A stretch of DNA of 64,000 bases from an uncultured virus (IMG/VR IMGVR_UViG_3300030673_000009) (taxonomy: Duplodnaviria > Heunggongvirae > Uroviricota > Caudoviricetes), in the IMG/VR virus record IMGVR_UViG_3300030673_000009; one strand, given 5' to 3'. The notes beneath the pieces were generated by a model, which searched no databases, had not been told where the DNA came from, and worked only from the letters and a program-made list of their open reading frames with translations. A program made the translations under genes and the position numbers. Below are positions 1-63,998 of the stretch, piece after piece. Position 1 is the first letter of the stretch, and each line of letters starts with the position of its first letter.

Positions 1-363
1 CTTCGCATCGCGCTCCACGTCCACCTGGCGCTGCGTGCCGTTCATGTTGAACCACTCGAAGTCCTTGGACACCATCTGGACGCTGACCACGTACTGCTCC
101 AGTCCCGCCAGGTACTCCGCGGCCTTCTGGATCTCGTCGCTGGGGTACTGGCCGCCGACGATCATCTCCACGTACGAGCGCCCCAACTGCCGCTTGGCGA
201 CCTGGATGCGGTCGAGATTCACCAGCGAGTACAGGCCCGTGATGTCCTTCTCAACAATCTGCGCGTAATCCGTCAGGTAGTCGTAGACCACCGAGTCGAT
301 GAAGGCGCAGCCCGCCGCCTCGTCGGCCTTCATAACCTCGACGAAGACATCCATGACGCTCAT
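1..363 (-). CDS. Head-module protein, N-terminal part only (runs off the window edge)
   Basis: Own translation: ATG at 363 with GGGAG upstream, open to base 1 (MSVMDVFVEVMKADEAAG...VDVERDAK); follows ORF 373-1557. Confidence 0.75.
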   Translation of the reverse strand, partial: MSVMDVFVEVMKADEAAGCAFIDSVVYDYLTDYAQIVEKDITGLYSLVNLDRIQVAKRQLGRSYVEMIVGGQYPSDEIQKAAEYLAGLEQYVVSVQMVSKDFEWFNMNGTQRQVDVERDAK

Positions 364-372
364 GAGCACTCC

Positions 373-1557
373 CTAGCTGCGCGAGCCGGGCATGGAGCCG
401 CGGCGTGTGCTGATCTTCCCACTCACCGAGCGGGTCAGGCCTCCAACACGAGGCCTCGGTGTGCGAAGGCCGGCGCCGATCGCACGGGTGTAGTTCGGCC
501 GTGGCATGCGGATCAGGGCCTTGGCCACGCGGTCCCGACCCAGCTCGCCGACAGCAGCACGCTCGTAGGCCTTCGCCTTGATCTTGTTCATCCGCCGCTG
601 CATGCCGCGAGCCGACCGGACATTGTTGGACGCCTCGATGCCGGCCATCAGGCCACCAGCCATGTACGCCGTCGTCGCCAGCCGGTTGCCGGGCTTCACG
701 CCGGACTTCGCGCCCATGATCCCGGCAAGGCCAGCCACCGTGCCGTTGCCGGTGCCCATGCCTACGTCGACGTTGCGACGGTGCTTGAGGTCCCGGTAGC
801 CGCGCTCGGCATCCGTGGAGATGTTCTGGGAGTGCGTGCGCAGGAAGCGGTCCTTCTTGACCACCTCGGGGTTCTTCAGCTTCTGCTGCTTGGCCTCCAG
901 CTTCTGCTGGGCGGCGTAGTTGAACGAGCCCACCGCACCCGTGCCGATCGCCATCGGGACCAGGGCATCCGAGGCAGCCGTGGCATGCGGCTCCATCTGC
1001 GCCAGGCGACGCACCAGGCGGCCATTGGCGGCCTTCGGCACCTTGCGGGCCACATAGTTCGCCGCTCGAGGCCCACGCAGTGCCAGGGCCGTCAGGCCCA
1101 TCGTGCCCGAGGCCAGCGACAGGTCCCGGCCGATCTTCTTGTGATGGACCAGCTTCTTGCGCTCGGAGACCTGCAGGTCGGCCTTGGCCATGGCCTCGCG
1201 TCGCTTGTCCGCCGCCTGCGCCATCGTCGCGTTGCGCAGCACCGGTCGGACCACGTCCCGGTCCATGTTCACCCGATGGACCTCCGTGTCCGGCTTCAGC
1301 AGGTTGTACGCCCCATAGGCCGCCAGCGGGATGCCCGTCGTGCGTGCCGCCGTCGTGGCGATCTTGCCTCCCACACGACGGGCGTGCACCCACCCCAGCT
1401 TCTTCTGCCGCAGTGCCCGGACGACCTTCGGACGCCCTGAGCGCCTCAGGTCCCGCTCGAGCAGCGCATTGCCGCCAGAAGCCGCACCGATCAAGGCGCC
1501 ACCGGCGGCCAGGTTGCCCGTAGCCGCTCGGCGCTGCTCCCGCTTGGACTGGCTCAC
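373..1557 (-). CDS. Basic modular protein with Gly/Ala-zipper segments (putative head-packaged polyprotein)
   Basis: 394 aa, Arg/Lys-rich, repeated Gly/Ala hydrophobic stretches; downstream of portal. Confidence 0.75.
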   Translation of the reverse strand: MSQSKREQRRAATGNLAAGGALIGAASGGNALLERDLRRSGRPKVVRALRQKKLGWVHARRVGGKIATTAARTTGIPLAAYGAYNLLKPDTEVHRVNMDRDVVRPVLRNATMAQAADKRREAMAKADLQVSERKKLVHHKKIGRDLSLASGTMGLTALALRGPRAANYVARKVPKAANGRLVRRLAQMEPHATAASDALVPMAIGTGAVGSFNYAAQQKLEAKQQKLKNPEVVKKDRFLRTHSQNISTDAERGYRDLKHRRNVDVGMGTGNGTVAGLAGIMGAKSGVKPGNRLATTAYMAGGLMAGIEASNNVRSARGMQRRMNKIKAKAYERAAVGELGRDRVAKALIRMPRPNYTRAIGAGLRTPRPRVGGLTRSVSGKISTRRGSMPGSRS

Positions 1558-1820
1558 GGCCGCTGCGCCATCTGCACCGCGAGGGAGTCGAAGTACTCCG
1601 TCGCATCACCGACATGCTTCTTCGCCACATGGAGCGTCAGGCCGATCGTGGCATGCAGGAGGATCACCATCGCCTCCTCGTGAGTCACCTTCTGCTCATC
1701 AGCCTCGTTCAGGAACAGGCCCACAAGAGTCTGCATGTCGTACCAGCGGTTCTGGGTCGCCAGCGAGCAGGCACCCACCGCCGTGCGGTAGGCCATCTCG
1801 CGCAGGTCCTCATTTTGCAC
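1554..1820 (-). CDS. Hypothetical protein
   Basis: C-terminal part of ORF 1554-2102; GTG at 1820 overlaps the portal end; start uncertain. Confidence 0.6.
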   Translation of the reverse strand: MQNEDLREMAYRTAVGACSLATQNRWYDMQTLVGLFLNEADEQKVTHEEAMVILLHATIGLTLHVAKKHVGDATEYFDSLAVQMAQRP

Positions 1821-3576
1821 GGGACTTCCCCTTCGGCTTGGCCTTGCTCTTCTCCTTGGCGTCCAGCTTGCGCTGGGCCATCTCGTGCTCGCGGTCCTCC
1901 GCACGATGAGTGTCCTCGCGCTCGTACTGCTCGCCCTGCTGGGCGTCCTCGCGCATCTGGCCCTCGGCATCCTTGGCGCCCTCGAGCTCAGCCTGCTCCT
2001 GCGCCTGAACGTCCTCGCGCTCCTGTGCGGCCTGCTGCTGCTCGCCATCCACCGCCTGCTGCTCGGCGGACTGGGCATCGGAGATGGCCGGCTGCATGGC
2101 ACTAGTGGGCAGCTGGCCCATCCGCGCCATCATCACCTCCTGCTGAGCCTGGATGTACTCGGTGTTGATCTGCGCGAAGGCCGTGGCCTCCGTGCGCTGC
2201 TGCATCTGCCGGCGACGCTCGATCGCGTCCTTGTCCAGCTGCGGCAGGCGAGCAGCCTCCCGGATGAAGTTCTCCAGGTCACCGTCGGGGAACCAGTTGA
2301 CCCCGGTGCCCGCCAAGGCCGCCATGAACTGCGCCAGCTGGCTGATGTCCGGGGAGTCCACGTCCGTCGGCACGATCGTCGGCAGGGCCTCCGGCCGCCA
2401 GCCGTTCGCCATGAACAGCCGCGGCAGGGCGTGCCGGTTGAGCACGTCGGCGATGTTGTTCGCGATCGAGTTCAGCGACGTCCGGAAGATGCCCGTCTTG
2501 TCGGTGTGCAGGGAGTACGAGCCCACACTCTGGTGGCCGACCAGGATGAAGTCGGCCAGCACCGTCATCAGGATACGTTCCTCGTACCGCTTGATAATGG
2601 CGTCAGTACTGAAGGCTCGCCCACCCCCTGAGCCGAGTAGCTCGAAGCTGTATAGGGGCTGTTTGGTGTCCTGGTCATAAGCCATCGGGAAGACGATGCC
2701 CTCTTGCTCATCCCTCCTGACGCTCTTGACCATCTTCTTGAACGCTTCGACGGTCTTCGCATTCTCGGTGCCCGCTTTCGCACGCAGCATCTCCGCAGGG
2801 ATCTTCACGATCGGGAGTCCCGCGAGGTCCCGCTCGACGCCGATCGCCTCGAACTCCTCGAGGCGCTTCTTCATGAACCACGGGCGGTAGGCGTTGCGCA
2901 GCATGCTGACGCCCTCGGGGTTGCCCTTCGTCTGGCGGTACCGGAACAGCAGCGAGCGCTCGATCGGCAGCGTCGCCGTCTTGTACGTCGGCGGGGCCAG
3001 CTGCACCAGCGCCCGCACGTCACCGGTCTCATCGAAGTTCCAGCGCAGCAGCGTCTCCTGGGCGCGGATCGGCATCTTGCGCCAGCCGATCAGGCCGTCG
3101 GAGAACTTCGAGCGCGTCTTGGAGTCCCGCGTCCACTGGCCGACACGGCGCTTGTACACGATCTCGTGCCAGGACCAGCCGTAGACGTTGGACGTCAGCA
3201 CCTCGGAGATGAAGTCGCTCCACGTGTGCGACATGTCCTGCATGCACTCCTCGACGAAGGTCGCGGCATCCGCGTCCTCCCTCGTCTTGCCCGCCGGGAC
3301 GACCTTCCACTCCACGTTGCGCAGCAGCCGGTCGATCGTGAACAGCAGCGAGCCCACCAGCGGATCGTTCTCGCTCATCTCCTTGAACACCTGGACGGCC
3401 TTGCGGCCACGCAGCTGCGGGAGGAACTCCTCGTCGATGTAGCCGGCGGCCCGCTTCAGGCCCGTGGAGCCGAGCTCCATGAACGGACTGGCTTCCTCGG
3501 CCTCCTTCAAGGCCTCCGCATCCGGCGCCGAGGTATCCCGGACCGATCCCTCACGACGGGTGGTCATCTCGCTCAT
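1810..3576 (-). CDS. Portal protein
   Basis: 588 aa; ELGSTGL...EEFLPQLRG, YGWSWHEIVYK, GNPEGVSMLRNAYRPW, GVERDLAGLP motifs typical of this portal family; charged C-terminal tail. Confidence 0.92.
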   Translation of the reverse strand: MSEMTTRREGSVRDTSAPDAEALKEAEEASPFMELGSTGLKRAAGYIDEEFLPQLRGRKAVQVFKEMSENDPLVGSLLFTIDRLLRNVEWKVVPAGKTREDADAATFVEECMQDMSHTWSDFISEVLTSNVYGWSWHEIVYKRRVGQWTRDSKTRSKFSDGLIGWRKMPIRAQETLLRWNFDETGDVRALVQLAPPTYKTATLPIERSLLFRYRQTKGNPEGVSMLRNAYRPWFMKKRLEEFEAIGVERDLAGLPIVKIPAEMLRAKAGTENAKTVEAFKKMVKSVRRDEQEGIVFPMAYDQDTKQPLYSFELLGSGGGRAFSTDAIIKRYEERILMTVLADFILVGHQSVGSYSLHTDKTGIFRTSLNSIANNIADVLNRHALPRLFMANGWRPEALPTIVPTDVDSPDISQLAQFMAALAGTGVNWFPDGDLENFIREAARLPQLDKDAIERRRQMQQRTEATAFAQINTEYIQAQQEVMMARMGQLPTSAMQPAISDAQSAEQQAVDGEQQQAAQEREDVQAQEQAELEGAKDAEGQMREDAQQGEQYEREDTHRAEDREHEMAQRKLDAKEKSKAKPKGKSRAK

Positions 3577-4262
3577 GCGCTCTTCCGATCATTCGCCTTG
3601 AGCCAGTCACGACTGGCCGTGGGTGACGGACGCCTGGACATCCCGTCCTTGTCCTGCAGCAGGCCGCCCTGGCTGGTCATCGCACGGTAGTCCCGCAGCG
3701 GGCGATGTGAAGGGGCCTGCGCTGGAGGGGCTTCCATCTGCCGCGGCTTCTTAGGCCCCGCCTTGCGTCGCTCCGCCATCACCGCACCGAGCACCCCGAG
3801 GGAGGCACCGGCACCGAGCACGCCGGCACCCACCCGCTTCACCCGCACGCGCTTGCGCCGGATGGCGTCCCCAGCCAGCATCGTGGCGTCCTTGGCCCTG
3901 CCCTCGGCATCCCGGATCGCCGTCTGGCGGTGATGCTCGTCGGCGTCCTTGATCCGCTGGCGCTGGGCGTTCATCTGCTCCGGGCCCATCCGGTACTGCA
4001 CGGGGGCACCGACCGGCTTGCCCAGGTTGTGCCGGGTGTCCTCGTCGAGGATGTCGTGCATCTGCTTCATCCTCGTGCGGGCTCGAGTGGCACCGGCCTT
4101 CGCCTTCGGGGCCTGCGGCTTGCCGTACAGCTTCGTCGGGTCGTACGGCTGGCCCTTGGGCATGCTCGAGGCGTGAGCCATGATCCCGCCACCCGTGGCT
4201 GCTATCGCCCCGCCCACAAGAGCAGCATCACCCCAGCGATTGGGCCGGCGATCGGAGGGCAT
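3573..4262 (-). CDS. Basic protein with two Gly-zipper segments
   Basis: AALVGGAIAATGGGIMA and VGAGVLGAGASLGVLGAVM flanked by Arg/Lys runs; stop overlaps the portal start. Confidence 0.75.
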   Translation of the reverse strand: MPSDRRPNRWGDAALVGGAIAATGGGIMAHASSMPKGQPYDPTKLYGKPQAPKAKAGATRARTRMKQMHDILDEDTRHNLGKPVGAPVQYRMGPEQMNAQRQRIKDADEHHRQTAIRDAEGRAKDATMLAGDAIRRKRVRVKRVGAGVLGAGASLGVLGAVMAERRKAGPKKPRQMEAPPAQAPSHRPLRDYRAMTSQGGLLQDKDGMSRRPSPTASRDWLKANDRKSA

Positions 4263-7374: not shown

Positions 7375-8991
7375 TCACAGGCCGAACCGGGCGCGTGACG
7401 CGTTCCAGTTCTGGGCCACCTCAGCTGCCGTCAGGGCACGGGAGTAGATCCGCACGATGCCGTAGTCGCCCGGGGCATAGTCCGGGTTGTCCCAGCGCCG
7501 GCCGATGCGCACCTCAGCAGCAGAGGACGCCGGTGTCGCCGTGCATGCTGACTGCACCGGGGCCGCGTTGTTCTTGTACAGGCTGAGGTTCGCTCCGTCG
7601 TAGGTGAGCACGAGCTGGTACCAGCTGCCCGCAGCCACCGTCACCGTCGGAGTCTGGTACCACGCACCGTTGTAGAATCCGGAGATCACCTGCCCGGACA
7701 CCCCGTTGTAGTTGATCGCATAGTTCACGTAGCTCGGGTAGTAGTCCGAGACGAATGCTCCGTTGTTCGCCGGCAGGCTGACGGGCTTCACCCACACCTC
7801 GATGGTGAAGCGAGTCAGCACGGAGATGCCGGGCAGCCTCATGAACTCGGCATCATCGAGGGTGATCACCCCGCCGGCAGTGGCCGCGAACGCCGGGGCT
7901 CCTGTGTCCGTGGACGTGAGCGCATGCCGGTTGTTGCCGGAGATGTCCGTCCACTCGTTGGCCGCCGCCGACAGCGGCTTGGAGGCGTCTAAGTGCGTGA
8001 CCAGGGAGTCCAGTACCGGCAGTTTCGGAGGAATCGAGATGTAGGGGTAGCGGATCGCTACGAGTCCGCTTCCTCCAAGGCCTGTGACCGGGCTCCAGCT
8101 GGCTGCCGAGTCCGAACCGGAACCACCTCCTCCGCCACCACGGCCATTCATGCCTGGGATGCCGTTGTTGGCCAGCGAACCACGCCCAGCCCCACTGGAC
8201 GCTGAGCCCGGAGTTCCCGTGCCCCGCTTGCCTCCGCCTCCGCCCGAGCCGAACAGCAAAGGCACGCCCAGCAGGCTGGAAACCACTCCTGCTCCACCCA
8301 CTCCGCCGTTGGAGGTCGAGCCGGCCGTCCCCACAGCACCGGCCCCGCCGCCACCGCCGCCGGAGACCAGGTTGCCATCCACGGTGGAGCCGTTGCCCGT
8401 TCCTCCGTTGAAGCCTCCCGTGCCCGTGCCTCCGGCGACCGTGCCTCCGTACCCGCCGCCTCCGCCACCACCCGAGGCTCCATTCCCTCCTGCTCCGGCC
8501 AGGCCGGCCATGCCTCCGCCCGCTGCCGTGTGAGCATTGAAGACCGAGGAGCCGCCCGGGGCGTTGCCGCTACCGTCGTTGAGTCCTCCAGCGCCCACAG
8601 TGATGCCGAACGACCCCGGTGACAGGGTGTCGATGCCCGTCAGCACCCTTCCGCCTCCACCACCACCGGTGGACTGCTGGAAGCAGGATCCTCCGCCACC
8701 GCCTCCACCCACGACCAGGTACTCGAACGGAATGGTGGCCGGAGCCCTCGAGGTGAGCGTGAACGTGTTGGAGCCCACGGCAGAGAACACATGGGTCCGG
8801 TACTGGCCATCGTCGATGATCGTCCCGCCTGAAGCGACCACGGCAGGCAGCTCAGCCAGCATTCCCCAGGACTCGTTGACCGCCGGAGGAACGTAGAAGA
8901 ACAGGTCCGGGTCCAGCCATGCCGTTGGATCCAGCAGCTCGGAGAACCAGCTCTTGATCCTCAGGATCGAGCTGGACAGGTACGCAGGCAT
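7375..8991 (-). CDS. Glycine-rich virion protein with C-terminal LamG/ConA-like domain
   Basis: YLVVGGGGGGG...GGSGLVAIRY Gly-rich domain; FTIEVWVKP, WYQLVLTYDG, RIYSRALTAAEV. Confidence 0.85.
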   Translation of the reverse strand: MPAYLSSSILRIKSWFSELLDPTAWLDPDLFFYVPPAVNESWGMLAELPAVVASGGTIIDDGQYRTHVFSAVGSNTFTLTSRAPATIPFEYLVVGGGGGGGSCFQQSTGGGGGGRVLTGIDTLSPGSFGITVGAGGLNDGSGNAPGGSSVFNAHTAAGGGMAGLAGAGGNGASGGGGGGGYGGTVAGGTGTGGFNGGTGNGSTVDGNLVSGGGGGGAGAVGTAGSTSNGGVGGAGVVSSLLGVPLLFGSGGGGGKRGTGTPGSASSGAGRGSLANNGIPGMNGRGGGGGGSGSDSAASWSPVTGLGGSGLVAIRYPYISIPPKLPVLDSLVTHLDASKPLSAAANEWTDISGNNRHALTSTDTGAPAFAATAGGVITLDDAEFMRLPGISVLTRFTIEVWVKPVSLPANNGAFVSDYYPSYVNYAINYNGVSGQVISGFYNGAWYQTPTVTVAAGSWYQLVLTYDGANLSLYKNNAAPVQSACTATPASSAAEVRIGRRWDNPDYAPGDYGIVRIYSRALTAAEVAQNWNASRARFGL

Positions 8992-8994
8992 GGC

Positions 8995-10338
8995 CTAGTA
9001 CGAGTAGACGATGCAGATGCCGGCTCCGCCTGCCCCGCCATTGCCTCCCAGTCCGGGGTTCATGCCGACGCCTCCACCACCGCCGCCACCGCCGCCGACG
9101 CCACCATTGCCACCATCGCCACCTGCTGCGCTGGCGAACGTCGTCGTGCCGCCTCCACCGCCGCCGGACCCGCCGACTGCTGACGTGGCTGCCGATCCCG
9201 CTGTACCCGCACCCGCGGCACCGGTCGTGGAGTCAGTTCCGTACGCGCCACCACCACCGGGGACATACAGGCCGCCGGCCTTGCCTCCTGCGCCACCGGA
9301 CACGTTGGCCGGAGTCGCCGAGTGGTGACCACCCGATCCACCGCCACCACCACCGCGCATGGACGATCCGCCCAGCGAGGATGCGACGGGCGGGTTGGCA
9401 CTTCCCGCTCCACCACCGCCACCGTCAATGGCGTTCTGCGTGGTCGATACGGCCACGCTTCCCGTCACGCCCTGGCACGAGACTCCTGCCGATCCAGCCG
9501 TCGGAAGACCGCCTGTTCCTGCCGAGGAGGAACCCGTGCCTCCAGCACCAAGGCCTCCACCACCGCCTCCTCCGCCAGAGATGGCTCCGGCGTTGTTTCC
9601 ACCCGCCCCGCCACCGCCTCCGTAGGCCGTCAGGAAGGAGCCGAACGTCGTGTTGCCGCCTACACCACCGGCACCGCCTGCTGCTCCTGCAGCGCCCCTG
9701 GCACCCACCGTTCCGCCGGTCCCGCAGGTGACCACGACCGAGGTGCCGATGTCAGCGACGTCGAACACGCCGCGCATCCAGCAGCCTCCGCCGCCTCCTG
9801 CACCGCCCTTGGCCACCGTCGCGGATGCCAGTGAGGCTCCTGCACCACCGCCGCCGCCAGCGCCGATCATCTCGACGATGACGACCTTGGCGCCTGCCGG
9901 TGCCGTCCACGTTCCACCCGTGCCCATGAACCGCTGCACATTGCCCTGACCGAGTGCGCCGTCGGCGACAGGGCCGCCCGAGGAGGACGACCGGATCCAC
10001 TCGCCCTCATTGGTCATGAGCACCGACTCGTAGGGAGCCAGCGTCCCGCGCCACAGCGTGTGACCGTAGGTGCCGTCATAGAGTTCGACCGTGACCAGGT
10101 CCGAGTAGGTGGCGTTCTCGTTGTAGAACTGCAGGTACTGCACGTTGCGCTGGATGCCTGCGCCTGGTGCCGCCACCACCGTCGTCGTCGTCGCGCTGGT
10201 GATGTCCACGTTGATGCCGTCGACGGTGACCGCACCGGCATTGTTGTCCGCCCAGGAGGCGTGGCAGTCGATGTCGATGCCAGTGGCTGCAGCCGTCACG
10301 ACGCGGACGAGGTCGGTGGTGCCATTCAGGATCAGCAT
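8995..10338 (-). CDS. Glycine-rich virion/fibre protein
   Basis: GTWTAPAGAKVVIVEMIGAGGGGG...GGAGICIVYSY. Confidence 0.85.
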   Translation of the reverse strand: MLILNGTTDLVRVVTAAATGIDIDCHASWADNNAGAVTVDGINVDITSATTTTVVAAPGAGIQRNVQYLQFYNENATYSDLVTVELYDGTYGHTLWRGTLAPYESVLMTNEGEWIRSSSSGGPVADGALGQGNVQRFMGTGGTWTAPAGAKVVIVEMIGAGGGGGAGASLASATVAKGGAGGGGGCWMRGVFDVADIGTSVVVTCGTGGTVGARGAAGAAGGAGGVGGNTTFGSFLTAYGGGGGAGGNNAGAISGGGGGGGGLGAGGTGSSSAGTGGLPTAGSAGVSCQGVTGSVAVSTTQNAIDGGGGGAGSANPPVASSLGGSSMRGGGGGGSGGHHSATPANVSGGAGGKAGGLYVPGGGGAYGTDSTTGAAGAGTAGSAATSAVGGSGGGGGGTTTFASAAGGDGGNGGVGGGGGGGGGVGMNPGLGGNGGAGGAGICIVYSY

Positions 10339-13621: not shown

Positions 13622-14278
13622 TCACGGCGCGATCTCGTAGCGAACGATCACCAGACCGGCATTGCCGCCATACCCATAGTTGCCTGGCGCGTATGCGACT
13701 GACGACCCGGAAGTGTCCTTGCTCAGGCCGGGACCGTAGTAGGCGCCATTGCCGGGGATGATGTCGCCGCCGCTGCCGCCACCTCCAGCACCGCCGCCGG
13801 CCCGGTACTGATCACCCGACGGACCATATGTGGGGCTCGGCCCATAGGCTGTAGGAGCACCCGATGTGCCGTTGGATGAACCACCTGACACCGAGTAGCC
13901 GGCAACGCTGGAGCCACCACCGTTACTACCAAGACCATTCGGTCCTCCCACCACGACCGCATAGGCCTGCGCAGCCAGTACAACTGCAAGCTGCTGGAGC
14001 ACACCGCCACCGCCACCGCCGTAGGTGTGGGTCAAGTACGACTCACCATCAGACCCACCACCTACCAGCAGCAGGTCGAATGGCTTCAGTGCGTTCAGTA
14101 CCGTCAAGGTGCCGCCTGCAGAGAACGAATGCACTTGGTACTTGTGACCCGAGACAGTGCCGGCCTGACCGGCAGCAGTGAACGTGGTGATCGTTCCACC
14201 CGTGGCAAGGTTGAACGCTGCACGAGCCAGTCCGCTGATCGGGGCGTACAGCCCTCCTACTGATCCGCGCCGTGGCAT
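13622..14278 (-). CDS. Glycine-rich virion protein
   Basis: ATGGTIT...HSF...LLVGGG...GLVIVRY, homologous to the N-terminal domain of 7375-8991; ATG at 14278 coupled to upstream stop. Confidence 0.8.
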   Translation of the reverse strand: MPRRGSVGGLYAPISGLARAAFNLATGGTITTFTAAGQAGTVSGHKYQVHSFSAGGTLTVLNALKPFDLLLVGGGSDGESYLTHTYGGGGGGVLQQLAVVLAAQAYAVVVGGPNGLGSNGGGSSVAGYSVSGGSSNGTSGAPTAYGPSPTYGPSGDQYRAGGGAGGGGSGGDIIPGNGAYYGPGLSKDTSGSSVAYAPGNYGYGGNAGLVIVRYEIAP

Positions 14279-14982
14279 CAGAAGTTCGCCAGCATCGAGC
14301 CGAAGCACACCCATGCGCCTGACTTGCGCACGAGGGTGAAGGAGAAGATGTCGATCTTGCCCGCACTCGAGGTAGGCGTCGGGGCACTGCCGCCAGCCCA
14401 CTTGATCGTCTGGCCACTTCCAGCCACCTGCAGTGTGGCCGGGATGTAGCCCGTGGCCCCCTGCGTGCAGAAGACCGTGACCGTGATCGCCTGGTCATTG
14501 GTCGTGGGGGCGTTCGTGATGTTCAGCGTCCAGTTCGCCGTCGGGGCCGTGGTGATGTACGAGACGTTGGAGTTCGCCAGGTCGAGCGTCTCCACGTTCG
14601 TGGCCAGCGCGATGGTGGGCGCCGGCTCATAGATGCGGTTCGCCTTGGCAGCCAGGTCGGCCGTCAGGTTCGTCACATCGGACTCGGCGATCGTGCCCAG
14701 GTGGTGCACATGGTCGGCCTTCGAGGCCGCAGTCGCCGATCCAGGAGCGGCCGTCCCCGTGTTCTGCGGAGTGGCCGCGCTCAGCGCGGGGACAGCCACG
14801 CCGCCCACCTGAAGAGCCGTGGCATTCACCGTGCCCGTGATCGTGAAGTTGCCCGTGACCACGTCCCCATGGGCGTTCATCGTGTCGTCGGCGAAGTCCG
14901 AGAGGATCGCCTGCAGATCAGCAGCGTCAGTCAGTTCCGGCAGGGTAAAGGCCGATGACCGCCCGGCAGGGGTGTACTCCAT
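14278..14982 (-). CDS. Tail fibre-like protein
   Basis: ASKADHVH motif; KWAGGSAPT...IDIFSF domain. Confidence 0.78.
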   Translation of the reverse strand: MEYTPAGRSSAFTLPELTDAADLQAILSDFADDTMNAHGDVVTGNFTITGTVNATALQVGGVAVPALSAATPQNTGTAAPGSATAASKADHVHHLGTIAESDVTNLTADLAAKANRIYEPAPTIALATNVETLDLANSNVSYITTAPTANWTLNITNAPTTNDQAITVTVFCTQGATGYIPATLQVAGSGQTIKWAGGSAPTPTSSAGKIDIFSFTLVRKSGAWVCFGSMLANF

Positions 14983-15043: not shown

Positions 15044-16576
15044 TCAGAGGTTGAACACGGCGATGTCGTCCGACGCTATCTGCACGGTGACGCCACCGAT
15101 GTCGTAGGCCACGTCCACGTCAGGCTTGGCATGGAAGCCCTCGAAGTCCTTCTTCGGATCCTCCGTCTTGGGCACGCCCTGCGCAGCAGCTGCCGGAGCC
15201 ATGCGCATGGCCGCCCGATGGCAGATCGCCCCCGCAGCAACCTCGTCGGCGAGGTGGGAGTTCCAGCGCCCCGGCATGAACACCTCCTCGACTGTGGTGC
15301 CCTTGTGGGCGTCGAAGTCGGGAGTGGCACGCGTGGTCAGGTCGTAGACGCCCTGCTCCACGGCAGTGATGTACTCGGTCAGCAGGTTCGTCCTGTCCCG
15401 GCCGATCATCAGCACCTTCATGGTGCGCTCGTCGATCATGTCGTGGATGACATTGCCCAGGCCGGTGGCGTCATGGGCACTGACCGCCTGGTACTCGATG
15501 CACAGGTCGTTGAAGGCATCGATCATCGTGGGCCACGGCCGCCTGTTCCAGATCCTCAGGTAGACCACCTTCCATGGGCGAATATCCGTACGGATGACCC
15601 GGAAGACGGTCTTGTCGTGCTCCTTGGCCCAGTCAGCCCCTGCTGCGTAGGTACCCAGAGCATCAGGCTTCTCGAAGACCCACTCGTCGTCATCTCCCTT
15701 ATGGGTCTCATCCACAGTCTCAGCAGCTCGGAAGTACTTGTTGAGCTTGGCCAGGTCGAACGCACGGCTTCCTCCTGCAGGCTCGCCCAGCTCGTACTCC
15801 ACCCGGAACATCTCGGCAGGAACGCTCAGTCTCTTGCGCTCGATGAACTCCGGGCTCATCCACCCCGTGGGGTTGTCCTTGGACTTGATGACCTCCCGCC
15901 AGCACCAGGTGAAGATCGGCATCCCCTTGGCCTTGGCATCGGCCATCACCGTGGAGAACGTGCCCACGGGGTTCTGCCACGTGCTCGAGGCCACCACCAT
16001 CTCGGGGATCTCGATGCCCCGGGCGTTGGGCTTCTCCATCGCCTGACCCATGGCGGCGTCGTAGACGTCCTTGTCCATCTCGTCGATCTCGTCCAGCAGC
16101 GTCATGTGCGGGTGAGGGCCGCGCACTGTCTTCTGGGAGGCGGGAAGCGGCCTGATCCAGTTGGACTCCCCGAACTCCAGCTCGGTCTGGATCTGCTTGG
16201 TGACCGCCTGCCGGGGAGCGTTCGGCTTGAGCATGAGGTTCTCCACATGCTCCTGCACGTTCTGGGACTGGGCCATGGACCCGCCCAGCAGGGTCACGTT
16301 GATCTCCAGCACCGCGGCCTTGACCAGGGCGAGCAGGGCCAGCATGTAGCTCTTGCCCGTGCCCCGAGAGCCGTACCACAGGGCGTAGTTGGGCTCCCTG
16401 GCGAAGTAGGCATGGGCGAAGGCGGTGAAGGGGGCCACGTGCCCCTCGCAGACGGCCTGCCGGGGGATGGCCACCCCGAACATGGCGAAGACCACCCACC
16501 ACAGCTCGTCCTCGGTGGCTGGGGGTCGTGCCAGCTGCAGCCTGCCTTGAGGGGTCGTGGTGAGGGTGTCGCTCAT
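15044..16576 (-). CDS. terL: Terminase large subunit
   Basis: Walker A GSRGTGKS, Walker B TLLDEID, nuclease GADWAKEHD and HDATGLG. Confidence 0.95.
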   Translation of the reverse strand: MSDTLTTTPQGRLQLARPPATEDELWWVVFAMFGVAIPRQAVCEGHVAPFTAFAHAYFAREPNYALWYGSRGTGKSYMLALLALVKAAVLEINVTLLGGSMAQSQNVQEHVENLMLKPNAPRQAVTKQIQTELEFGESNWIRPLPASQKTVRGPHPHMTLLDEIDEMDKDVYDAAMGQAMEKPNARGIEIPEMVVASSTWQNPVGTFSTVMADAKAKGMPIFTWCWREVIKSKDNPTGWMSPEFIERKRLSVPAEMFRVEYELGEPAGGSRAFDLAKLNKYFRAAETVDETHKGDDDEWVFEKPDALGTYAAGADWAKEHDKTVFRVIRTDIRPWKVVYLRIWNRRPWPTMIDAFNDLCIEYQAVSAHDATGLGNVIHDMIDERTMKVLMIGRDRTNLLTEYITAVEQGVYDLTTRATPDFDAHKGTTVEEVFMPGRWNSHLADEVAAGAICHRAAMRMAPAAAAQGVPKTEDPKKDFEGFHAKPDVDVAYDIGGVTVQIASDDIAVFNL

Positions 16577-59482: not shown

Positions 59483-60820
59483 CTAGTAGTACCTGGCGTC
59501 AGTGCTCTTGCGACCCGCCCGGAACGACCCACCCAGGGCCAGGGCCCCACCGGTCACCGCCGCCGTCGTGCGCACCGGATGAGCGGACACCGCCGCCCCA
59601 CCCTGCCACAGCGGACCGGTGGTGAAGTTGTGCAGCGCGTACGACGGCTTCGGGGCCGCCGGATCACGCGTGGCAACGATCGGGGTCTTGTACGTCAGCT
59701 TCCGCTTGCCGCTCGAGGACAGGCCCACCTCGGCCTGACGCGCTCGAGCACCGCCGATGCCCGGAGCCCGCACCAGCGAGCCCACCTTCGGCAGGCGAGC
59801 CTTGCCGACCGGCACCAGCTGGCCGGCACGCTTCTTCTTCGCACGGTGCATGGCGTACAGAGCCGCGCCGCCAGCCACCGTGCCACCGACAGCAGCACCG
59901 ATCAGGGCACCACGACGGATCTGCCGGGGAGAGGCAGAGGACCTCAGGTTCTCGTTGATGCGCAGCGCACCAGCCCGCAGCTCATCCGGCGACTGACGAG
60001 GAGCACGAGGAGCGCGAGTCCTCGGCGGGTTCGGGTTCAGGTGCAGGCTCTCGGGCACCACGGCCTTCTTGCGGGTCCGAGGCTTGCGCGGGGCAGCCGG
60101 AGCCGCCACCGGGGTCACCGGGGCCTTGCGGCGCACCGGCTTCTTCGTCGCCTGCGTCTGCCGGTCATAGGCATCCATCACCGGCTTGTGCTCGGCCACC
60201 ACCTTGTCCCGGTGATCGATCGCGGCCTGCGTCGCCTTCGCCTGACGCGCCAGCTCCGCCTCCATGCCCGCGAGATCCCTCGGCAGCTTCCGGGCTGCCT
60301 TGGACAGCGTGTACGCCTTCGCAGCAGGCATCACCACCGGGGCATACCGCTGCTTCGGCTTGTCAGAGTGCATCGCCGCAATGCCGCCAGCGCCCACAGC
60401 ACCACCAGCGGCACCCACGCCCGCCCACACGTTCCGCAGCCGCTTGGCCTCGCCCACGCCACGAGTGGTCATCGAGTCCACCCGGGCATCCATGTCATTG
60501 GCATCGCGGATCGCCGCCGAGCGAGGGCCCTTGCCCGCCGCTGTCGCGTTCGCCCGCATCGCACCGGCACGACGGCCAGCCCGGCCGGCAGTGTCCAGGT
60601 AGTCCTTCACCCCGCCGGTGCCGAACACCTCACTGGCCACCCGCTTGATCGCCTTCGGGTGCGAGCCGATCCGAATCTCATTGCCCGCCGCATCCACGTC
60701 CGTCATCGACGCCGCGGACCGGTAGTTGCGGGCCAGGCTCGACACGTACCGCTGGCCCAGCTTGCGGGCCTCCAGCAGGCGGCCCTTGGCAACCTCATCG
60801 GAGTAGACGAAGTGACTCAC
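59483..60820 (-). CDS. Basic modular Gly-zipper protein (putative head-packaged polyprotein)
   Basis: GTG at 60820 with GGAGG RBS; three Gly/Ala segments, each after a cationic tract. Confidence 0.75.
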   Translation of the reverse strand: MSHFVYSDEVAKGRLLEARKLGQRYVSSLARNYRSAASMTDVDAAGNEIRIGSHPKAIKRVASEVFGTGGVKDYLDTAGRAGRRAGAMRANATAAGKGPRSAAIRDANDMDARVDSMTTRGVGEAKRLRNVWAGVGAAGGAVGAGGIAAMHSDKPKQRYAPVVMPAAKAYTLSKAARKLPRDLAGMEAELARQAKATQAAIDHRDKVVAEHKPVMDAYDRQTQATKKPVRRKAPVTPVAAPAAPRKPRTRKKAVVPESLHLNPNPPRTRAPRAPRQSPDELRAGALRINENLRSSASPRQIRRGALIGAAVGGTVAGGAALYAMHRAKKKRAGQLVPVGKARLPKVGSLVRAPGIGGARARQAEVGLSSSGKRKLTYKTPIVATRDPAAPKPSYALHNFTTGPLWQGGAAVSAHPVRTTAAVTGGALALGGSFRAGRKSTDARYY

Positions 60821-63266: not shown

Positions 63267-63998
63267 TCAGATCCCCTTCTCAGAGATGTAGGCGTCGTAG
63301 GCCGCGGGATTGGCCTCGAACAGGGCGACGGTCGCCTGGGCGTGGGTCAGGTCGGACTTGCCGACCAGATCGTCCGCGTAGGCGTCCACAGCGTCGATGA
63401 CGCTGGAGTTGGAGGACTCCCCGACGTAGCCGAGCTCGTTGTAGAGCGCGTCGCCGACGGAGTTGAAGAGCTCGTCGATGACATCGAGCTGGTCCTCGTC
63501 GAGGACCTCCGCCATCGCCTTGAGGATCGGGCCGAGCACCTCGGGGCTGACCGGGAGGTTGTACGTCGCGGCCTTGGAGACGAACTCCTGGGTGATGCGG
63601 ATCTCCCGCTCGCTATCGGCGTAGGCAAGGGCCTCGCGGGCCTCCGCCTTCGCGACCTCGACCTCACCCATCGCCTTGGCGATGATCTCCTCGCGGTCAC
63701 GCTCGGTGACTGCCTTCGAGAGCTGCTCGAGCACGGTGTCTCCCAGTGACTTGTGGGTGTTGTGGCGGTGCACGGCGTACGCGCTTCCGCCAGCGGCTGT
63801 GGTCACGGCCGCGGCCCCGCCGGCATCACGAGCGATCCGGCCCTTGTTGGCCTTGCGACCCTCGCCCTTGAACTTCACGTCGCGCATCGACGTGCGGCGA
63901 TCGCCGCGGAAGGCGATGTCGCCGGCGCCGGAGTCGGGCGCGTAGTAGTCGAGGGGGTTCTTGAGCTTGCGAGCGCCCTTGAACCCGACGTTCTTCAT
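63267..63998 (-). CDS. Scaffold protein (probably N-terminally truncated by the window edge)
   Basis: Acidic helical C-terminal domain ending ANPAAYDAY; frame open to the window end; upstream of decoration and capsid genes. Confidence 0.75.
   Translation of the reverse strand: MKNVGFKGARKLKNPLDYYAPDSGAGDIAFRGDRRTSMRDVKFKGEGRKANKGRIARDAGGAAAVTTAAGGSAYAVHRHNTHKSLGDTVLEQLSKAVTERDREEIIAKAMGEVEVAKAEAREALAYADSEREIRITQEFVSKAATYNLPVSPEVLGPILKAMAEVLDEDQLDVIDELFNSVGDALYNELGYVGESSNSSVIDAVDAYADDLVGKSDLTHAQATVALFEANPAAYDAYISEKGI

Follow-up and report, generated by a model that had tools for sequence, protein, structure and literature searches.

A modular family of basic helical-hairpin proteins encoded behind the portal gene of an uncultured siphovirus-type phage, a candidate carrier polyprotein of the phage head

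Proteins of the T4 and phiKZ type are loaded into the prohead, trimmed by the head protease at a short consensus, and ejected together with the DNA. The S77-type proteases of the large myoviruses cut after Glu, and the proteins concerned are mostly separate gene products with N-terminal propeptides. The known substrates of S78 proteases are capsid delta domains, the portal, and the protease itself, while siphoviruses are thought to use the tape measure protein for the envelope conduit. Glycine-zipper two-helix membrane domains make up the Pfam families Gly-zipper and Rick_17kDa_Anti. The current study concerns a protein of 394 amino acids (aa) encoded in a 64,000-nucleotide stretch of DNA from an uncultured virus (IMG/VR record IMGVR_UViG_3300030673_000009), hereafter referred to as the window. 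This protein, the target, is the smallest member of an undescribed family consisting of three basic helical hairpins and a tail. We propose, with a probability of roughly one half, that it is a head-loaded carrier polyprotein, which is cut at its joints and ejected with the DNA.

Several described systems provide the background for this proposal. Passages of PMC10052503 and PMC5694885 report that the internal proteins and Alt of T4, as well as the ejection and inner-body proteins of phiKZ and SPN3US, are processed by the prohead protease. The S78 proteases HK97 gp4 and T5 pb11 cut after lysine (PMC13517437, in the section that treats them), and XkdF-family peptidases are named as likely head-processing enzymes in a passage of PMC7824862. 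Polyvalent proteins, as presented in parts of PMC5512222, are encoded with portal and terminase genes and presumed to be packaged; they carry metallopeptidase, ParB, and other domains and include MuF fusions. Injected polyvalent proteins are described as including GNAT domains, and host immune systems based on SLOG are treated alongside (passages of PMC5512222 and PMC7824862). The podovirus ejection proteins (P22 gp7/gp16/gp20 and T7 gp14-16) are helical, exit via the tail, and form a conduit across the envelope, according to excerpts of PMC8402733 and PMC8954989. Among the papers listed by our literature search on bacteriophage virions and ejection, none mentioned the glycine zipper. The features of the target are as follows, with the hyphen after Lys marking the candidate bond:

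373..1557, minus strand: target gene, 394 aa, GTG start; insert-free U1-U2-U3-tail member of the undescribed modular family
1183..1557, minus strand: unit U1, residues 1-125, a basic helical hairpin ending in MAK(125), with unit hidden Markov model (HMM) matches and a conserved end motif
853..1182, minus strand: unit U2, residues 126-235, a hairpin ending in VVKK(234/235), found in most family members
520..852, minus strand: unit U3, residues 236-346, the motif DRFLR..ISxxAExGY followed by a hairpin, ending in VAK(346)
376..519, minus strand: basic C-terminal tail TL, residues 347-394, net charge +11, with a predicted beta-hairpin at 373-385
1183..1185, minus strand: K125 codon, junction 1, candidate cleavage site MAK-A (EAMAK-ADL); K125 is nearly invariant and an insertion hot spot
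853..858, minus strand: K234/K235 codons, junction 2, candidate site VVK-K or VKK-D (PEVVK-K, EVVKK-DRF); insertion hot spot
520..522, minus strand: K346 codon, junction 3, candidate site VAK-A (DRVAK-ALI); site of a 235-aa insert in relatives with a near-identical core

An earlier note on this DNA, made from its letters, had described three units plus a basic tail, and this division is evident in the protein: six uncharged Gly/Ala-rich stretches (residues 11-33, 73-87, 146-160, 198-218, 265-283, and 293-307) are arranged in three pairs, after which the basic tail follows. The boundaries named there (MAK-A, VVK-K, and VAK-A) lie at K125, K234/K235, and K346, and it is here that insertions in relatives cluster. 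We aligned the target with 63 relatives using MAFFT, without reference to the previously named boundaries, and counted insertions of at least 25 aa. These occurred after residue 122 (4 sequences, mean 169 aa), after residues 228-233 (36 sequences), and after residue 345 (15 sequences, mean 234 aa), while the only insertions elsewhere were three single ones of 26-28 aa. Since insertions of this size are almost confined to the three positions, K125, K234/K235, and K346 are real module junctions. Profiles of the units (U1, 1-125; U2, 126-233; U3, 234-346; tail, 347-394) were also mapped onto 143 family proteins, in 142 of which the parts present kept the order U1-U2-U3-tail; the exception, P0075, has an additional weak U3-like match. 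Variable stretches of 25 to ~740 aa were found in these 143 proteins only between parts or at the protein ends. An alignment of homologues, which the note had suggested as a check, places variable modules exactly at the three named sites, with a hydrophobic-x-Lys (h-x-Lys, or h-x-K) motif on both flanks. Three repeats of one module were considered as a description of the protein and rejected, as mutual hhalign comparisons of U1, U2, and U3 yielded probabilities of ~1% and no repeat relation.

The motif at the joints is the second line of evidence. We asked how often [VILMF]-x-K ends within a 7-residue window at the start of a part, using control windows drawn from the same proteins. It was present at 79/101 U2 starts, 76/92 U3 starts, and 31/37 tail starts, compared with 438/5324 controls (8.2%), and its consensus forms are h-x-K-xDDRFL at U3 starts and h-x-K-ALLxxP at tail starts. 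Val occupies P3 in 113 of the 186 motif junctions, and P1' is mostly Ala, Arg, Ser, or Asp. Among inserts of at least 60 aa (n=99), the motif marks the near end in 85, the far end in 66, and both ends in 63. Even the two proteins that begin with U2 (P0074 and P0076) have a short leader ending in EVAK ahead of it. Across the 230 junctions, h-x-K was found in 186, h-x-R alone in 4, and neither in 40; the whole family contains 8454 Arg vs. 5601 Lys, and in control windows h-x-R outnumbers h-x-K 2.3-fold. The joint Lys is strict, with Arg almost never in its place. A Lys-strict tripeptide that recurs at junctions and insert ends resembles the recognition sites of an enzyme.

The family itself is fast-evolving: in related loci, the portal is 61-89% identical to that of the window, as opposed to 30-45% for the family protein. 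Approximately 140 relatives were found, all metagenomic. A word-indexed search of metagenome proteins with the target gave 24 matches, and an exhaustive search gave 130 cluster representatives of 81-1169 aa, with 92 at E up to 1e-10 and 46 at E up to 1e-30. Conservation of the protein in these relatives, together with a coding-like GC content at third codon positions (GC3) of 0.87, as usual for coding sequence in the window, indicates that the target open reading frame (ORF) is real. No family was assigned to the target by Pfam (E up to 0.1), PHROG, or NCBIfam, and a match to a known single-domain family, which the earlier note regarded as telling against its idea, was likewise absent from searches of the Protein Data Bank (PDB) and of folds. 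A scan of one genome per prokaryote species revealed no relative of the target, and hence neither a prophage copy nor a host. Within the family, conservation is highest in the motif AIGTGxxGSFNYAxQQKLE, which is carried by U2 (invariant columns S196..E221). The nearest relative, P0001 (629 aa), shows a single difference in residues 2-346 (E332Q), yet 235 additional residues stand exactly between its RDRVAK and its tail, the latter with differences at 9/48 positions. The tail also forms the C-terminus of two otherwise different proteins, P0137 and P0131.

What lies between the units in the relatives can be recognized in part. A Pfam run on 111 family proteins detected GNAT above the curated cut-off in P0124, P0109, P0118, P0095, and P0023 (and more weakly in P0110 and P0019), as well as YAcAr, a SLOG domain, in P0119, P0120, and P0130 (E about 1e-20). 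Each was the single recognized domain in its protein, and all other inserts lacked a Pfam identity; among the target and these 111 relatives, no polypeptide was recognized as having more than one effector or enzymatic domain. The target itself is free of inserts. In the 235-aa insert of P0001, an HExxH...DEAR signature is invariant across five proteins, and the module may be a metallopeptidase, as read from this motif. Its placement varies: it is found before the tail (P0001, P0034), after U2 (P0081), upstream of U3 (P0132), and in a separate protein with the tail only (P0137). The inserts of P0004 and P0005 appear by eye to be further Gly-rich basic segments. When variable stretches of at least 60 aa were compared, 140 of them fell into 49 BLAST clusters, including 41 singletons; the largest cluster covers all junction types, although it is inflated by single linkage through multi-module inserts. 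Between U1 and U2 of P0022 there is a DGAHRYAA stretch, which by eye recalls ParB-type nuclease domains; no such domain was confirmed in this insert by Pfam (E up to 0.001) or NCBIfam (E up to 0.01).

The third line of evidence comes from the neighborhood of the gene. The window (GC 64-69%) belongs to a phage genome of siphovirus type, with a 2168-aa tape-measure-sized ORF, a tail-tube protein (PF25595), and a lambda-E-type capsid protein, and its late genes are located on the minus strand and run past both window ends. In order, these are the terminase (15044-16576), fibre-like and lysis genes, a 229-aa basic protein, the portal, an 80-codon ORF, the target, and ORF 1-369, followed at the other window end by the scaffold, a cement protein, the capsid protein, and the tail genes. 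The neighbors of most relevance are the following:

1810..3576, minus strand: portal protein (Mu type), PF06074 E=6.9e-36, phrog_113 E=2.6e-89
1554..1796, minus strand: small ORF of 80 codons between portal and target; no NCBIfam family (searched from the third codon)
1..369, minus strand: N-terminus (123 codons) of the next gene, which is 1142 aa in relatives and has no known family; runs off the window
63267..63998, minus strand: C-terminal two thirds of the scaffold, motif-rich; the start of the gene in relatives lies past the window end, further upstream

The note had placed the target beside the portal; the two are not direct neighbors, as the small ORF intervenes. The TGA of this ORF overlaps the GTG of the target (GTGA), suggesting coupled translation; related loci have a gap of ~300 bases at this position. 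The portal is directly ahead of the family gene in 32/37 IMG/VR loci and the order of head genes is kept down to 30% identity. Among cultured phages, the closest portals belong to Arthrobacter phages. The window has the appearance of a circularly permuted part of a ~70 kb genome. Related complete records, of 70.4 and 73.2 kb, carry direct terminal repeats (relatives overall, 67-73 kb), and the record nearest to the window is a fragment of 36.5 kb that lacks the gene.

We read the interval between the window's two ends in IMG/VR loci whose gene copy has a near-identical core. The order there is target, 1142-aa protein, AAA+ ATPase, 834-aa protein, 258-aa protein, 273-aa basic Gly-rich protein, and scaffold. 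The C-terminal half of the 258-aa protein is an XkdF-type serine protease (PF14550 E=2.5e-21; phrog_3017 'head maturation protease' E=1e-13). In locus L004, the PF14550 protease, encoded at 13820-14596, accompanies a gene copy differing by one core residue, and an XkdF-like protease was present in 18/18 loci whose DNA extends that far. The N-terminal extension of the protease has conserved V-x-K-M, x-S-K-(S/A)D, and EF(S/T/A)K-xD sites around a variable basic stretch. A similar arrangement is seen in the scaffolds of five related genomes, in which AFSK-S is kept along with an acidic run ending in V(G/E)K-A and a K-S(L/M/F) immediately ahead of the conserved core, and a variable basic Gly-rich module separates the sites. 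The full-length scaffolds in L039-L043 (310-381 codons in open frame) are composite, consisting of an N-terminal piece (DLDIDEVSVVDRxANQH), the acidic run, the variable basic Gly-rich module, and the conserved core, and the Lys motif is present at every transition between pieces. In L004 (6947-15587), five genes separate the target from the scaffold; the 1142-aa and 834-aa proteins have no known family, and the AAA+ ATPase is of the EccA/SpoVK/CbbX type (TIGR03922 E=6.5e-56, far below the curated cut-off). Such an ATPase is unusual in a head module and might unfold or load large proteins.

Other basic, Gly-rich proteins are encoded nearby. The 229-aa protein (3573-4262, minus strand) has two Gly/Ala-rich segments, overlaps the portal start by 4 bases, has no family match, and occurs only in the closest relatives, L002-L007. 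ORF 59483-60820 (minus strand; 445 aa) lies between the capsid and connector genes and is basic and Pro/Ala-rich with Gly-rich segments; it has no family and no match in five related genomes, and it thus appears lineage-specific. The unit HMMs found no second copy of the family in the window or in L004, and so these two and the 273-aa protein are not detectable relatives of the target. Two large proteins with long Gly runs (GGGGG tracts) at 7375-8991 and 8995-10338 (minus strand) adjoin the fibre-like genes and are probably tail fibre or collagen-like parts.

The earlier note had also seen the boundary motif in the scaffold and in ORF 59483-60820, and had suggested testing head-module proteins for enrichment of [VILM]-x-K-[ASGD]. 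Relative to residue shuffling of each protein, the scaffold fragment has 6 occurrences vs. 1.21 expected (p<0.0025) and ORF 1-369 is likewise enriched (4 vs. 0.49), whereas ORF 59483-60820 showed no enrichment (3 vs. 2.06). Pooled, the 9 head-module proteins have 22 occurrences vs. 11.5 expected (p=0.003) and the 59 other proteins 48 vs. 39.5 (p=0.09). Enrichment is seen in the pool of head-module proteins, but not in the target alone. Taken by itself, this enrichment is modest support. The related suggestion of several such precursors fares unevenly as well: the relatives' scaffolds have conserved sites of the same kind, but ORF 59483-60820 is neither enriched nor represented by a homologue in the five genomes.

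Composition and structure prediction bear on what the units might do. The target is rich in Ala (15.0%), Arg (12.7%), and Gly (10.9%), with 78 Lys and Arg vs. 25 Asp and Glu, a net charge of +53, and an isoelectric point (pI) of 11.7. Its Gly/Ala-rich helices show small-xxx-small patterns, and every loop between the Gly/Ala-rich stretches, on both sides, has a net positive charge. Over 19 residues, the Kyte-Doolittle mean reaches 1.15 at best, a hydrophobicity below that expected of ordinary membrane helices. Together with the positive loops, this makes the target unlike a six-helix membrane protein. The note's proposal of membrane-active peptides, which derived from composition, is not sustained in that form; the data argue against ordinary transmembrane helices and allow insertion after release, DNA binding, or both. 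An AlphaFold2 (AF2) model from 64 sequences (mean predicted local distance difference test [pLDDT] score, 80.2; predicted TM score, 0.47; 22 sequences gave a mean pLDDT of 58.8) contains three long, confident helical hairpins, which pair residues 5-40 with 56-87, 130-160 with 189-228, and 248-286 with 292-336, plus a beta-hairpin at 373-385 within the tail. The pLDDT is ~90 for the U1 helices 5-40 and 56-87 and up to 97 for the U3 helices. Since 124-129 and 229-236 are modeled as coil, junctions 1 and 2 are predicted to be in coil; K346 is modeled inside a short helix (341-349), just before a coil (352-361) with pLDDT under 50. Foldseek searches of the pLDDT-80 model against BFVD and the PDB returned no match at E below 0.1, VIA-align against 48,161 chains returned only generic helical hairpins (Z up to 9.5, below the meaningful level for long helices), and profile searches of PDB sequences with the alignments of the family and of the HExxH module yielded none below E 0.5. 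The best ESM Atlas scores (0.80 for the whole target and 0.84 for the HExxH insert) are leads only, as are LPD23 and Peptidase_M78, which appeared at 0.82. A complex prediction of the portal with the whole target scored 0.00 and is evidence neither way.

Based upon these features, a carrier polyprotein would operate as follows. The target would be loaded into the prohead, perhaps via its conserved tail, and the prohead protease would cut after the Lys at each joint. Here, the products would be three fragments (13.5, 11.5, and 12.1 kDa) and the tail of 5.2 kDa (pI 10.6-12), while in the relatives it would additionally release the enzyme modules. The pieces would exit with the DNA at infection. 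In the least certain step, the freed hairpins may help the DNA to cross the envelope or may neutralize packed DNA. The note's view of a cut precursor gains from the modularity, the strict Lys, and the XkdF-type protease of the relatives, while the packaging and cleavage themselves are what we infer from the sequence.

Several observations weigh against this reading. In the target alone, [VILM]-x-K-[ASGD] is not significantly enriched (4 vs. 2.05 expected, p=0.14). The XkdF-type protease lies outside the window and is known from relatives only. The literature yielded no measured specificity for XkdF-type (Peptidase_S78_2) proteases, and the Lys rule applied here is borrowed by analogy from the S78 enzymes. 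A conserved h-x-K is also found at column 325, inside a U3 helix, in 55% of members, and consequently the motif alone does not define a joint and not every motif is a cut site. Conservation of the joint motif could be partly the ordinary conservation of unit ends. A tblastn search of 50,697 phage records with the target, P0124, and P0033 found no match, and thus no cultured relative. Finally, in Arthrobacter phage Kharcho, whose portal has 88% DNA identity with the window's over 116 bases, the interval between portal and scaffold also holds non-structural genes (RNA ligase, VRR-Nuc), and position alone is therefore no proof of a virion role.

It is conceivable that the system goes further, although we regard the following as doubtful when taken as a whole. 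In an uncultured clade of siphovirus type, the family could serve as a 'cargo rack', a polyprotein packaged in the head with joints coded for a Lys-specific protease, any of the three of which would accept new anti-host enzymes that are freed in the capsid. The hairpins would exit first and build or prime the path of the DNA across the envelope, and the tail would act as a portable encapsidation tag.

There are three rival explanations. The best of these, which is nonetheless unlikely, is that the target is a minor head or ejection protein replacing MuF, which enters the head on the portal as one chain and is never cut. The h-x-Lys joints would then be linkers, recognition elements for contacts with portal, scaffold, or DNA, or sites of Lys modification. 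The gene that follows the Kharcho portal is a counterpart in position; it encodes a 551-aa protein that lacks all of the units and in which zinc-binding motifs typical of MuF can be recognized by eye. A passage of PMC5512222 presents MuF-type proteins as components of the head with fused effector domains, and the fixed order of the units suggests that they work jointly. The same tripeptide would, however, hardly be expected of an uncut chain at three unrelated junctions and at both ends of inserts, with Lys almost never replaced by Arg, nor does an uncut chain account for the Lys-cutting type of protease encoded in the same module. Rather less probable is a polycationic core protein, cut or uncut, which would remain with the DNA in the head to act as its counter-ion or condensing agent and in which the Gly/Ala-rich helices would pack together instead of entering a membrane. 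The net charge of +53, the pI of 11.7, the net positive charge of every loop, a hydropathy below the need of membrane helices, and the predicted long helical hairpins, a generic coiled-coil fold in the model, would all suit such a role. It leaves unexplained the enzyme modules inserted in relatives and the very fast divergence compared with the portal, and the strongly conserved motifs (AIGTGxxGSFNY and ISPxAExGY) suggest more than bulk charge. A non-virion protein in or on the membrane of the infected cell is improbable. It would, for example, provide a platform for assembly or take part in exclusion or lysis control, and would belong to the late operon by position only. Six uncharged segments of 15-23 residues, the non-structural genes between portal and scaffold in Kharcho, and another basic protein containing Gly-rich segments, encoded immediately upstream of the portal, speak for it. 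Against it are the best 19-residue hydropathy of 1.15, the strongly positive loops on both sides, contrary to the positive-inside rule, the tight coupling of the target start to the small ORF behind the portal, the invariant synteny with head genes, and the tagging of other cargo by the tail.

If the target is indeed a carrier polyprotein, its affinities would be with two kinds of systems that are already known, namely processed and ejected head proteins and polyvalent cargo proteins. Like the polyvalent and MuF-effector proteins (as characterized in parts of PMC5512222), the family is encoded beside portal and packaging genes and presents variable enzyme modules in one chain. GNAT and SLOG-type domains are shared, and the HExxH module of the family is maybe like the metallopeptidase (MPTase) domain described in those parts. 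Neither a MuF domain nor the Pfam 'large polyvalent protein' domain was detected in the target family; its modules sit between three small hairpins at motif-marked joints, and most members have one or no recognizable enzyme. The position downstream of the portal is shared with MuF-like minor head proteins, but searches of Pfam and PHROG detected no MuF domain in the target. With the T4- and phiKZ-type proteins, the likeness would extend to prohead loading, protease trimming, and ejection, although these are derived from sequence in the present case. The differences are a genome of siphovirus type, a protease of XkdF/S78_2 type (in relatives), a Lys motif, and a single multi-module chain. Lys at P1 is common to the candidate sites of the family and the substrates of HK97 gp4 and T5 pb11 (PMC13517437, same section), whereas the target family is a candidate cargo polyprotein and the protease is of the XkdF subgroup. 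For the podovirus ejection proteins, an envelope conduit is one possible role that the hairpins could share; no relation in sequence or fold to the target was found, and this phage has its tape-measure-sized ORF of 2168 aa. Similar to the glycine-zipper membrane domains, the target has paired, short, Gly/Ala-rich helices with small-xxx-small patterns, but it has no Pfam match (E up to 0.1), its hydropathy is below the level of membrane helices, and both flanks are strongly basic. What is new is the family itself, the placement of cargo between small hairpins at Lys-motif joints, the pairing with an XkdF-type protease in a genome of siphovirus type, and a candidate portable C-terminal tag.

Most of the documented cases of processed internal proteins are hitherto from T4 and the giant myoviruses. 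If the joints are protease sites, the family would constitute a compact natural system for loading and releasing exchangeable proteins in a head of siphovirus type, and the hydrophobic-x-Lys rule would predict the mature virion proteins of phages with XkdF-type proteases. The tail would likewise be a candidate portable packaging tag, and the inserts would be unexplored cargo modules, probably directed counter to host defences. Irrespective of cleavage, the family is new and is widespread at the post-portal gene position, and its contrast with the conserved portal marks this position as a site of rapid adaptation.

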